Shown here piece after piece: positions 42,104-42,961 of a stretch of 61,100 bases of DNA (its first letter is position 1; the number at the start of each line of letters is the position of its first letter). Location: assembly GCA_025057985.1 (NCBI GenBank), contig JANXEV010000003.1:1-61100 (forward strand). Reading direction: 5' to 3'. The notes beneath the pieces are model-generated. The model was given only the letters and a program-made list of their open reading frames with translations, searched no databases and had not been told where the DNA came from. A program made the position numbers and the translations under genes. The DNA is from Candidatus Aenigmatarchaeota archaeon (GTDB lineage: Archaea > Aenigmatarchaeota > Aenigmatarchaeia > CG10238-14 > SpSt-28).

Positions 42104-42961
42104 CTACCATTCGTGAAATTTTCTATTTTCTTCTACGTTTGAGTTATCGATACTACTTTTTGAATCGTACGATTCTGATCGATACGTATCGATACGTATC
42201 GTTTTTAATCTTACCCAACCCTTCCCATCTCTTTCAAATCTTTCTATTTCATCATTTATCTTGCTCAACTTGGAGAGAAGACCTCTCAAACTGTCAACGG
42301 AGATTTGGAGTTTTTGGGAAAGATCAGCATAGCTTATTTCTTTTTCTTCTCTGAGAATTTGTAAAATTTTTTCCATCTTTGGGCTTAATGCTGCTTTTTT
42401 CAAGTCTTCTATTGTAGATAAAATTTTAGGTCGAGATTCTTCAGGGAGTGAGAGTTCAAGGTTTTTTAGAGTGTTTATTGCGTTAAGTATAACTTCAAAT
42501 CGTCTTTCTTCGTTAGTTTCGTGTTTAGAGATAAGTTCTTTAAGTTGATGAGTTGTTGTGGTTATTTCTTCTATTTTAGGTAGCAGAGTTAAACTGATCC
42601 AATCCTTGGTTGCTATTAGCTCTTCTATTCTTTTTATCGAGTTTTCAATATCTATTAGCGCTCGTGAGATATATCCAGCAGCTACACCTAGTTGTAGTGA
42701 TTCTTTTTCGAGTGTGATTTGCCTTTTTTCCACATCTATCTTTGGTTCTTCTTTAGAGATAAATCTATTATCCGAAGTTTTTACTACCGATTCACCGATT
42801 CGTATCGTTGTATCGACCGATTCGTATCGATTCGTATCGTTGTGTATCGATTCGTATCGATTCGTATCGCTACGTATCGATTCGTATCGTTGCGTATCGT
42901 TTGGTATGCTTTCTTCTCTATCCCTCACGAACATTCTTTTTAACCAATTTATTATACTCAT
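42104..42961 (-). CDS. Repeat / coiled-coil / C-terminal wHTH protein
   Basis: DTNRYESI tandem repeats, heptad-like middle region, then ILQILREEKEISYADLSQKLQISVDSLRGLLSKL...GKGWV wHTH. ATG 42961 used (ORF track gives GTG 42982). Confidence 0.82.
   Translation of the reverse strand: MSIINWLKRMFVRDREESIPNDTQRYESIRSDTNRYESIHNDTNRYESVDTTIRIGESVVKTSDNRFISKEEPKIDVEKRQITLEKESLQLGVAAGYISRALIDIENSIKRIEELIATKDWISLTLLPKIEEITTTTHQLKELISKHETNEERRFEVILNAINTLKNLELSLPEESRPKILSTIEDLKKAALSPKMEKILQILREEKEISYADLSQKLQISVDSLRGLLSKLSKINDEIERFERDGKGWVRLKTIRIDTYRSESYDSKSSIDNSNVEENRKFHEW
42163..42201. repeat. Palindromic GATACGTATC cluster near the 3' end of the wHTH gene
   Basis: AATCGTACGATT (42163-42174) and two GATACGTATC palindromes (42181-42200). 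Confidence 0.85.
42799..42900. repeat. 10-bp-period tandem array, consensus TTCGTATCGA
   Basis: Eight in-phase units at 42821-42900, each with the invariant core GTATCG, plus two more cores at 42799-42816. Confidence 0.95.

Follow-up and report, generated by a model that had tools for sequence, protein, structure and literature searches.

Helically phased motif arrays inside the gene of a predicted winged-helix protein of Aenigmatarchaeota, a candidate protein and binding-site pair near a dif-like site

This report concerns a locus within a 61,100-nt stretch of DNA from Candidatus Aenigmatarchaeota archaeon (positions 1–61,100 of contig JANXEV010000003.1, assembly GCA_025057985.1), hereafter termed the window. 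Its subject is gene A (42104..42961, minus strand), which encodes a predicted winged helix-turn-helix (wHTH) protein and carries two arrays of a short CG-centred motif within its own coding sequence (CDS). The arrays are conserved at the DNA level, are phased with the turn of the double helix, differ in sequence from lineage to lineage and are restricted to this single locus, which is syntenic with a second wHTH gene, termed B, and with dif/XerA. The locus looks like an undescribed pair of a protein and its binding sites marking one chromosomal spot. It seems to us reasonably probable that the arrays are helically phased, sequence-specific protein-binding sites that bracket gene A, are read most likely by the A protein itself, and mark a landmark on the dif side.

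The window is contig C31 of an assembly that comprises 554 kb in 37 contigs. Homologous loci were collected from genomes (23 loci) and metagenomes (78 loci). The complete homologous open reading frames (ORFs) number 88, and all 88 are in frame. Dereplication of the gene A homologues at 80% identity yielded 54 representatives. Checks of position and motif content were made on a 481-kb contig of G091, a near-complete relative.

The arrays in the window

Array 1 (42796..42907) occupies the codons of disordered residues ~20–55 and consists of ten GTATCG cores (CGATAC on the coding strand; unit CGATACGAAT). On the plus strand the cores begin at 42802, 42810, 42824, 42834, 42844, 42854, 42864, 42874, 42884 and 42894, the last eight being exactly 10 bp apart. 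A preliminary description of this DNA had reported ten cores, eight of them in exact 10-bp phase, and the recount at 42802–42899 agrees. Tandem Repeats Finder detected a 10-bp period with nine copies at 42818–42907 and a 30-bp period at 42796–42901. Three units make up 30 bp, or ten codons (I-R-I-D-T-N-R-Y-E-S), so that the core is read in three frames; on the coding (minus) strand the ten cores fall in frames 2, 0, 1, 2, 0, 1, 2, 0, 2 and 1, which bears out the earlier statement that all frames are used. Departures from the consensus are found at none of the 60 core positions, as compared with 11 of the 36 spacer positions (Fisher p = 7e-6).

Array 2 (42148..42201) has five cores, at 42148, 42180, 42186, 42190 and 42196, which form overlapping palindromes (GATACGTATC twice) in the codons of the C-terminal tail (...TIRIDTYRSESYDS). 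A 14-bp palindrome, GAATCGTACGATTC, at 42161–42174 adjoins these cores. The second palindromic cluster that had been noted earlier is thus confirmed; its place is within the CDS, among the C-tail codons, and not after the gene.

The motif is concentrated to an unusual degree. GTATCG occurs 27 times in the window, whereas dinucleotide shuffles give 9.8 ± 3.2; more than half (15) of the copies are within gene A. The genome-wide count that had been proposed gave 115 copies in the 554-kb assembly, in which arrays 1 and 2, both in gene A, are the sole clusters. With 165 (array 1) and 105 (array 2) occurrences of CG per kb, the arrays exceed both the gene A core (21 per kb) and the genome as a whole (25 per kb). 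The earlier remark that CG is sparse elsewhere holds only mildly (the genome-wide CpG observed/expected ratio is 0.87), but the arrays do stand out as CG islands.

Conservation of the arrays in homologous loci

Each well-sampled lineage has its own CG-centred motif of ~7–10 nt in the DNA of the 5′ tail: CGATACGAAT in the window clade, and TGAATCGAT, ACTCGAT, AAAGCGCTTCA, AAGCGAT(G/T) or AAATCGA in others. The AAAGCGCTTCA motif is translated as A-L-Q, S-A-S and R-F-K. At least four copies of a CG 6-mer are present in 40 of the 54 representatives, and all three frames are used in 30 of these 40. Array 1 begins ~55–90 nt past the start codon in nearly all members and comprises 6–12 sites, while array 2, located ~0.25–0.6 kb away, comprises 2–3.

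The spacing of the copies follows the geometry of DNA. Among 203 inter-copy gaps, the most common are 10 bp (91 gaps), 11 bp (21), 20 bp (16), 21 bp (22) and 22 bp (9), and multiples of three account for 20%. The longer gaps fall at 21/22, 32 and 42–44 bp rather than at 20, 30 and 40 bp. In the 54 representatives the mean number of base pairs per turn is 10.18, 10.30, 10.33 and 10.58 for gaps of one to four turns, respectively; because this mean grows with gap length, the spacing tracks the helical repeat of DNA and not multiples of ten. In 56 distinct N-terminal tails, autocorrelation is highest at lags 10, 20/21, 32 and 42, with low values at lags 3, 6 and 9, while in the gene A core it shows ordinary codon periodicity.

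The periodicity exceeds that expected from the encoded peptides. When tails were resampled synonymously with each gene's own core codon usage (200 resamplings), the mean lag-10 excess was 0.032, as compared with 0.121 observed; p was <= 0.05 in 40 of the 56 genes, and 33 of the 56 exceeded all 200 resamplings. Codon use differs accordingly between tails and core, with CGN making up 82% of Arg codons in the tails versus 30% in the core, TCG 27% versus 4% of Ser codons, GCG 52% versus 10% of Ala codons, and ACG 18% versus 7% of Thr codons.

The motif of array 1 also recurs at a second site. In 50 of 58 genes its 7-mer is found again downstream within the gene, at a density of 3.5/kb, as compared with 0.14/kb in the flanks and 1.0/kb for lineage-swapped motifs. 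Where the protein ends right after the wHTH, array 2 is found in non-coding DNA past the stop codon (L006/L051, L059, L060 and L008), and in L019 it lies partly within the 3′ tail of the convergent neighbour, gene B. In the clades of L008, L009, L011, L016 and L017, array 2 falls within the codons of a conserved RF.ALQSAL helix. Among close strains the cores are constant and variation falls in the spacers of 2–3 nt, which also alters the peptide. CGATACG, counted on both strands, occurs ten times in the 481-kb G091 contig, always inside gene A.

As a separate observation, about two dozen copies of CGATACG would be expected in the G091 contig from its base composition, and the motif may be avoided outside gene A.

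Lineage-specific motifs, a period of ~10.2–10.6 bp, the use of three frames, forced rare codons and the non-coding copies together indicate that the repeat is selected as nucleic acid; sequence comparison thus supports its conservation as DNA and not as peptide. Selection of the repeat as DNA had been suggested in the preliminary description, with the converse case, homologues that keep the peptide and lose the DNA period, named as the outcome that would speak against it. The homologues show the opposite, the period being kept together with three-frame use, rare codons and, in some loci, non-coding copies.

Two more specific interpretations were considered and set aside. The motifs AAGCGCTT and AATCGATT might represent a compensatory change that preserves a palindrome, an interpretation weakened by lineages with the hybrid AAGCGATT and by the non-palindromic window array. 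Nor does the locus resemble a phase-variation locus, given its variable spacers, gaps of 11, 21 and 22 bp, in-frame ORFs and strain differences of 30 bp.

The A protein and the candidate reader of the arrays

Gene A encodes 285 aa from an ATG, as given in the ORF list, and this start agrees with the N-termini of homologues; an alternative in-frame GTG upstream, at 42982, would give 292 aa. The product consists, in order, of an N-terminal amphipathic helix, a disordered tail, a helical hairpin, the wHTH and a second disordered tail. An AlphaFold2 model built on a 27-sequence alignment has a helix at residues 3–11, disorder at 13–75, long helices at 77–115 and 119–171, a further helix, the wHTH at 194–252 and a disordered C-tail at 256–285, in agreement with the layout of disordered tail, helices and wHTH proposed earlier. 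The predicted local distance difference test score (pLDDT) is <50 at residues 13–75 and 256–285, and both disordered tails coincide exactly with the array-bearing DNA.

The N-terminal helix (MSIINWLKRMF; codons 42926..42961, minus strand, MSIINWLKRMFV), delimited from the alignment and the model, corresponds to a family consensus MGxIxxIKKxxF that is followed by basic residues. Its hydrophobic moment ranges from 0.45 to 0.79 across the family, from which a membrane- or partner-binding role may be suggested. The best conserved part of the protein is the long helical hairpin (residues 77–171; codons 42449..42733, minus strand, LEKESLQLGVAAGY...), likewise defined by alignment and model. The wHTH (residues 194–252; codons 42206..42382, minus strand) contains the recognition helix SVDSLRGLLSKLSK and was identified from the model, from Foldseek and from Pfam matches (HTH_11 and HTH_24) that are below their cut-offs. 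Foldseek searches with this domain returned MarR, ArsR/SmtB/HlyU, SSV1 F-112 and the centromere protein AspA of pNOB8, all with weak E-values, and a sequence search of the PDB with A gave similar matches. As modelled, the fold is a DNA-binding winged helix of the MarR/ArsR type.

A matches no curated family: Pfam and NCBIfam yield only generic HTH matches under the cut-off. An Rfam search of the region returned nothing. The combination of hairpin and winged helix recalls ESCRT-III/CdvB-like proteins, a candidate that was rejected because there is no Snf7 match and the best-ranked Foldseek matches include no ESCRT-III protein. A paralogous relationship between A and B was also rejected (BLASTP E = 0.11). 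Matches to the repeat peptide in P0116, P0120, P0124 and others arise from translated simple repeats that are unrelated, and these proteins are not relatives.

The family comprises 35 close clusters, and 118 representative clusters at 50% identity. It is confined to one order of Aenigmatarchaeota, where it was found in 56 of the 251 genomes sampled, nearly always as a single copy, and its named records are metagenome-assembled genomes of Aenigmatarchaeota. Across this order-level radiation the protein identity is 32–60%. The tree of A looks vertical, and the locus is set among housekeeping neighbours.

The A protein is itself a plausible reader of the arrays. In its recognition helix, S-V-D-S-L-R-G-L-L-S-K, the residue two before the invariant LRG varies with the type of motif, being Asp where the units are of the AATCG or TATCG type and Ser where they are of the AAGCG type; a separate EDG clade with AATCGAT units fits the rule. 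This apparent covariation is suggestive. The recognition helix of B (LHHKTVSRL), on the other hand, is near-invariant across lineages with different motifs, and this constancy of B while the motifs change favours A over B as the reader.

The dif-like site and XerA

A dif-like site, TTAGAGATAA-N6-TTATCTCTAA (43793..43818), with perfect 10-bp inverted arms and a 6-bp spacer, is located in intergenic DNA ~830 bp from the ATG of gene A and ~890 bp from array 1. A dif-like site ~0.9 kb away had been noted in the preliminary description, and it is indeed present. Archaeal dif has been described as two inverted arms of ~11 bp with a 6-bp spacer, intergenic and present once per chromosome (PMC2958812). 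The repeat at 43793–43818 fits this layout, to which it is likened by description and not letter by letter. The perfect repeat is the sole copy in the window assembly, and the same is true in the G091 contig.

The only tyrosine recombinase of the assembly, a XerA candidate (25200..25670, plus strand), is encoded 18 kb from the dif-like site. In ten loci an integrase-family (XerA-like) orthologue lies directly upstream of A, and where XerA adjoins, the site is between XerA and A. Among the 61 loci with enough flanking sequence, 18 have a dif-like repeat 0.4–0.9 kb upstream of A; the density of such repeats is 0.25/kb upstream of A versus 0.007/kb elsewhere. Two types of arm occur, TTAGAGATAA and GTTCGTATAA, and the second type of site, GTTCGTATAA-N6-TTATACGAAC, which also has perfect arms, occupies the equivalent position upstream of A in other clades, namely in L053 (at 2492), L057 (at 2237), L066 and L088. 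The occurrence of two arm types at one position suggests that XerA has evolved jointly with its site and that the neighbourhood was preserved meanwhile.

Inside gene A itself the dif arm TTTAGAGATAA is present two more times, at 42524–42534 and 42752–42762 on the minus strand, where it encodes (L/F)-I-S-K. This 11-mer has four copies in the 554 kb, three of which are within the 1.3-kb A locus; relatives of the window clade have one arm-like 9-mer inside A. The intragenic arms might follow from conservation of the ISK peptide, or they could serve as XerA half-sites. A weaker dif-like repeat, TTAGATATCA-N6-TTATATCTAT, was also observed on another contig (G000:C11:40958), ~5 kb from orc1/cdc6.

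Neighbouring genes

Gene B (37682..38518, minus strand) encodes in the window, and in an enlarged form shared by the window clade, a protein of 278 aa, for which AlphaFold2 predicts an N-terminal α/β domain and two winged helices; Foldseek matches to this tandem arrangement are weak. B is the downstream neighbour of A in 71 of ~100 loci. Elsewhere it is a single wHTH of ~90 aa (MRKD...LHHKTVSRL), encoded directly downstream of A and convergent with it in most lineages.

The second recurrent partner is a nuclease-like domain of the PD-(D/E)xK type (Mrr_cat/Hjc-like), which L020, P0040, P0094 and P0106 carry as a C-terminal fusion to A. The D...E-x-K motif is intact in most of the A-fused domains. 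In L022 (4646–5362) the N-terminus of B is fused to a PD-(D/E)xK domain, with a Pfam Mrr_cat score of 22.1 bits against a cut-off of 21, and in some loci a nuclease-like domain is possibly encoded separately, upstream of A. With the exception of the B fusion of L022, searches of Pfam, NCBIfam and PDB with B, with the small ORF described below and with the upstream nuclease-like ORF returned a generic wHTH at most.

Between gene A and the dif-like site, divergent from A, lies a conserved ORF of 74 aa (43434..43658, plus strand), which is found at an equivalent place in 11 loci. It has no Pfam or NCBIfam match; its β-α-β-like pattern presumably recalls small folds of the Cas2/VapD type. The AT-rich spacer upstream of A (42983..43433) holds an 18-nt direct repeat, TTCATTTCGTCTA, at 43095 and 43145, and a duplicated element of 62 nt (43292–43353 and 43377–43438; 74% identity) with a TTAAATA-like box in each copy. 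One possibility is that these repeats are promoters in duplicate; another is that they provide additional binding sites.

Other neighbours of A in the window include MFS, YgjP, TrkH and VIT1 genes, wHTH gene B and orphan genes. Genes for SMC, ScpB and five ParA/MinD-like ATPases are present in the genome of the window, but not next to the A locus. A role of B as a replacement for ScpB was rejected, a canonical ScpB being present.

Explanations of the arrays

Under the explanation that we prefer, arrays 1 and 2 would be double-stranded DNA binding sites that face the same side of the helix; coding DNA would tolerate them because the disordered tails encoded there have a barely constrained peptide. 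The A protein would oligomerise via its helical hairpin and place one winged helix on each unit of ~10 bp, giving a cooperative nucleoprotein complex on the 6–12 sites of array 1, possibly bridged to the 2–3 sites of array 2. Protein and sites would co-evolve, with a lineage-specific motif as the outcome. Negative autoregulation would follow directly from the binding of A to the arrays, since the complex would occupy its own transcription unit. Beside XerA/dif, such a complex would constitute a single-copy chromosomal landmark that could act as an anchor, a roadblock or an accessory element, with the N-terminal amphipathic helix as a handle to the membrane or to a partner.

A landmark role beyond autoregulation is suggested by the amphipathic N-terminus, the obligate partner B, the nuclease-domain fusions and the recurrent dif/XerA neighbourhood. 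We infer from these features that the complex might be anchored and might take part in chromosome segregation or dimer resolution. More speculatively, A, the arrays, B and the PD-(D/E)xK domain might together constitute a previously undescribed chromosome-organising system of this order of Aenigmatarchaeota, in which a single self-encoded centromere-like complex, tethered through the N-terminal amphipathic helix of A, positions or insulates the adjacent dif region, as an SMC roadblock or a XerA accessory, in archaea without FtsK; its sites would form an overlapping code in the disordered-tail codons of the gene of their own binder. We regard this broader proposal as doubtful and put it forward tentatively.

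Several observations weigh against the preferred explanation or against parts of it. With respect to the protein, the covariation of recognition helix and motif amounts to about two independent events, and the KSA clade, which has Ser together with an AAATCGA motif, breaks the rule. With respect to the arrays, the excess of variable columns outside the cores among close strains (3 of 60 core columns versus 11 of 71 others, p = 0.086) is a non-significant trend; close strains differ by whole blocks of 30 bp (three units), so that slippage adds to array turnover; the RNA of the array folds somewhat more stably than shuffled sequences, which leaves room for a role at the RNA level; and a weak, decayed (TCAATCA) or missing array in 14 of the 54 representatives indicates that a strong array is not a prerequisite for the protein. 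No NTPase partner is adjacent to A in the window, and none is found among the conserved neighbours in the ~100 loci. The linkage to dif, which the preliminary description had proposed to check in homologues, is conserved in about a third of the loci, with XerA adjacent in ten, but in about two thirds of those with enough flank no dif-like site was found upstream of A.

The chromosomal position of the locus is a further point of this kind. The preliminary description had envisaged a terminus-organising role for it. In G091, however, the locus, at 288 kb, is 65 kb away from orc1/cdc6 (353.6 kb) and not opposite it, and both the cumulative GC skew and the gene orientation switch at ~205 kb, with no inflection at the locus. 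On shared contigs A and orc1/cdc6 are 62–197 kb apart, in genomes of 0.7–1 Mb. It should be noted that GC skew here largely parallels the coding strand and therefore provides weak counter-evidence, and that the origin may not be next to orc1 in the G091 lineage. A terminus position is nevertheless not supported.

Of the alternatives, the one that survives best is that the arrays serve autoregulation only, A acting on them as a roadblock or looping repressor and the dif neighbourhood being inherited synteny without function. The constant position of array 1 shortly after the start codon in nearly all members, the restriction of the sites to gene A itself and the lack of an upstream dif-like site in about two thirds of the loci all fit this interpretation. 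Known autoregulatory operators, however, do not need 6–12 phased sites and a second cluster, and the conserved amphipathic helix, the strict retention of B and the PD-(D/E)xK fusions point to a larger machine. For these reasons we consider autoregulation as the sole function unlikely.

It is also, in our opinion, rather unlikely that gene A is a mere carrier of arrays read by another factor, be it B or a histone or Alba protein that senses the 10-bp dinucleotide periodicity. B is a wHTH protein whose gene adjoins A in 71 loci, array 2 is often at the A–B junction or in the tail of B, and a strong 10-bp periodicity of CG and AT is a signal that positions DNA-wrapping proteins. Against this stand the recognition helices, of which that of B is near-invariant and that of A varies with motif type, and the exact lineage-specific 7–10-mers common to arrays 1 and 2, which exceed what non-specific wrapping proteins would need.

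A function at the RNA level, such as a rare-codon or structured ramp at the 5′ end, pairing of motifs between the 5′ and 3′ ends or a site for an RNA-binding protein, would accord with the self-complementarity of many cores (AAGCGCTT, AATCGATT, ATCGAT), with the construction of the arrays from rare CG codons and with the predicted folding energy of array 1 RNA (−29.9 kcal/mol versus −22.8 ± 2.7 for shuffles, z = −2.65). Its predicted ensemble is diffuse, however, the frequency of the minimum free energy structure being 0.04 and the centroid retaining one small hairpin, and the non-palindromic direct repeats of several lineages (window array 1 and the AAGCGAT types) are not self-complementary and cannot pair with one another. 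These two properties make an RNA-level role less likely than binding to DNA. Moreover, the spacing follows 10.5n, a property of double-stranded DNA, and the region matches no Rfam family. We therefore judge an RNA element very unlikely.

Equally specific objections apply to the absence of any nucleic-acid function, that is, to a 10-bp minisatellite propagated by slippage and gene conversion in the codons of a dispensable, tunable linker. The preliminary description had offered slippage expansion of a linker as its alternative. Gain and loss of units in 30-bp steps does occur among close strains, the tails are predicted to be disordered, and arrays have decayed or are missing in some lineages. 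Slippage is insufficient on its own, however: the motif is kept at a second site 0.25–0.6 kb off, including non-coding DNA, the longer gaps are of 21/22, 32 and 42–44 bp and not of 20, 30 and 40 bp, the cores are invariant while the spacers vary, and the pattern persists across an order-level radiation at 32–60% protein identity. A minisatellite devoid of function is, in our view, highly improbable.

The least probable alternative is an iteron origin or captured replicon, with A or the tandem-wH B initiating on intragenic iterons (compare lambda O/ori and Sulfolobus WhiP/oriC3): although the iteron-like arrays adjoin an AT-rich spacer of 450 bp and have an integrase-family gene and an inverted repeat in their vicinity, and although B has a tandem-wH architecture, A is usually single-copy with a vertical-looking tree and housekeeping neighbours, the integrase is the sole tyrosine recombinase of the genome, domains of the primase, helicase or Rep type are lacking, the gene for a canonical Orc1/Cdc6 is at another place, and the G091 switch at 205 kb is away from the locus at 288 kb, the skew there following the coding strand. 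The presence of Orc1/Cdc6 also led to rejection of A as the chromosomal initiator of a lineage lacking these proteins.

Returning to the reading of the arrays as binding sites of A, the locus is a small and testable candidate (one protein, an array and a partner) for chromosome segregation or organisation in DPANN archaea with genomes of 0.5–1 Mb, and it bears on the control of archaeal XerA/dif recombination in the absence of FtsK. The locus also provides a natural example of an overlapping code that is unusually clear, in which helically phased sites are written into a CDS in three frames, are enforced by rare codons and shift to non-coding DNA where the coding frame ends. Finally, the lineage-specific motifs provide a ready specificity panel for the co-evolution of a winged-helix protein with its DNA sites.

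Comparison with known systems

In lambdoid phages, the iterons of ori-lambda (~19 bp) lie inside gene O, in the part that codes for a linker, and the specificities of sites and protein covary. The array of gene A is likewise within the CDS of its predicted binder, in disordered-tail codons (pLDDT <50). Unlike gene O, however, gene A has two terminal arrays of ~10-bp units, is a chromosomal archaeal gene and differs in fold and domain order; nor does the A locus of G091 coincide with a switch of skew or orientation, the skew following the coding strand.

The centromere systems parC/ParR (R1, pSK41) and tubC/TubR use 6–12 short iterons of about one turn, located near the gene of the binder, for which cooperative coating by small dimeric DNA-binding proteins is thought or known, and they autoregulate; TubR is a wHTH protein. 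The A arrays are similarly made of short iterons (gaps of 10, 11, 21, 32 and 42 bp; 6–12 copies). In contrast to parC and tubC, which are promoter or intergenic arrays of plasmid systems with an adjacent ParM or TubZ motor, the A arrays are in coding DNA, in three frames, on the chromosome of one archaeal order, and no motor is encoded beside A in the window or in the ~100 loci.

Sites of the ParB/parS system can lie inside the parB (spo0J) gene, and in this respect A would be alike, a putative site inside its own gene marking one chromosomal region. A parS-like system, as the preliminary description had envisaged, is nevertheless not borne out: Pfam and NCBIfam detect no ParB domain (CTPase plus HTH) in A, and the motif is a unit of ~10 bp rather than the 16-bp parS palindrome. 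Noc of Bacillus and Staphylococcus, a ParB-family CTPase with dispersed sites, tethers DNA to the membrane through an N-terminal amphipathic helix. A also combines such a helix, for which a membrane role may be proposed from its hydrophobic moment, with a predicted DNA-binding domain; its putative sites, unlike those of Noc, are in one gene.

The enterobacterial MatP combines a ribbon-helix-helix domain with a four-helix bundle and a C-terminal coiled coil and binds matS, a 13-bp palindrome scattered over the Ter domain. Like MatP, A would be a dimeric DNA-binding protein with a coiled-coil part and is a proposed organiser of the dif region. The likeness suggested earlier to MatP/matS ends there, as the MatP fold was not found in A by Pfam, NCBIfam, AlphaFold2 or Foldseek, and the motif clusters at a single locus instead of being dispersed.

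In Thermococcus kodakarensis, Smc-ScpAB is stalled, and a domain boundary set up, by the wHTH protein TrmBL2, which forms a stiff filament, in concert with the DNA that surrounds dif and not by dif/XerA as such; dif and boundaries colocalise in several euryarchaea (PMC11840125). The A locus is comparable in that a wHTH gene and an array of sites are conserved beside a dif-like site in a genome that encodes SMC and ScpB. TrmBL2, however, binds many loci with low specificity, whereas the putative sites of A are sequence-specific and confined to one gene, and A is not of the TrmB family (the TrmB wHTH domain, PF01978, is absent among the Pfam matches to A at E <= 1). By analogy, the mechanism proposed here most resembles that of lambda O, with its internal ori iterons, joined to that of the parC/tubC centromere arrays.

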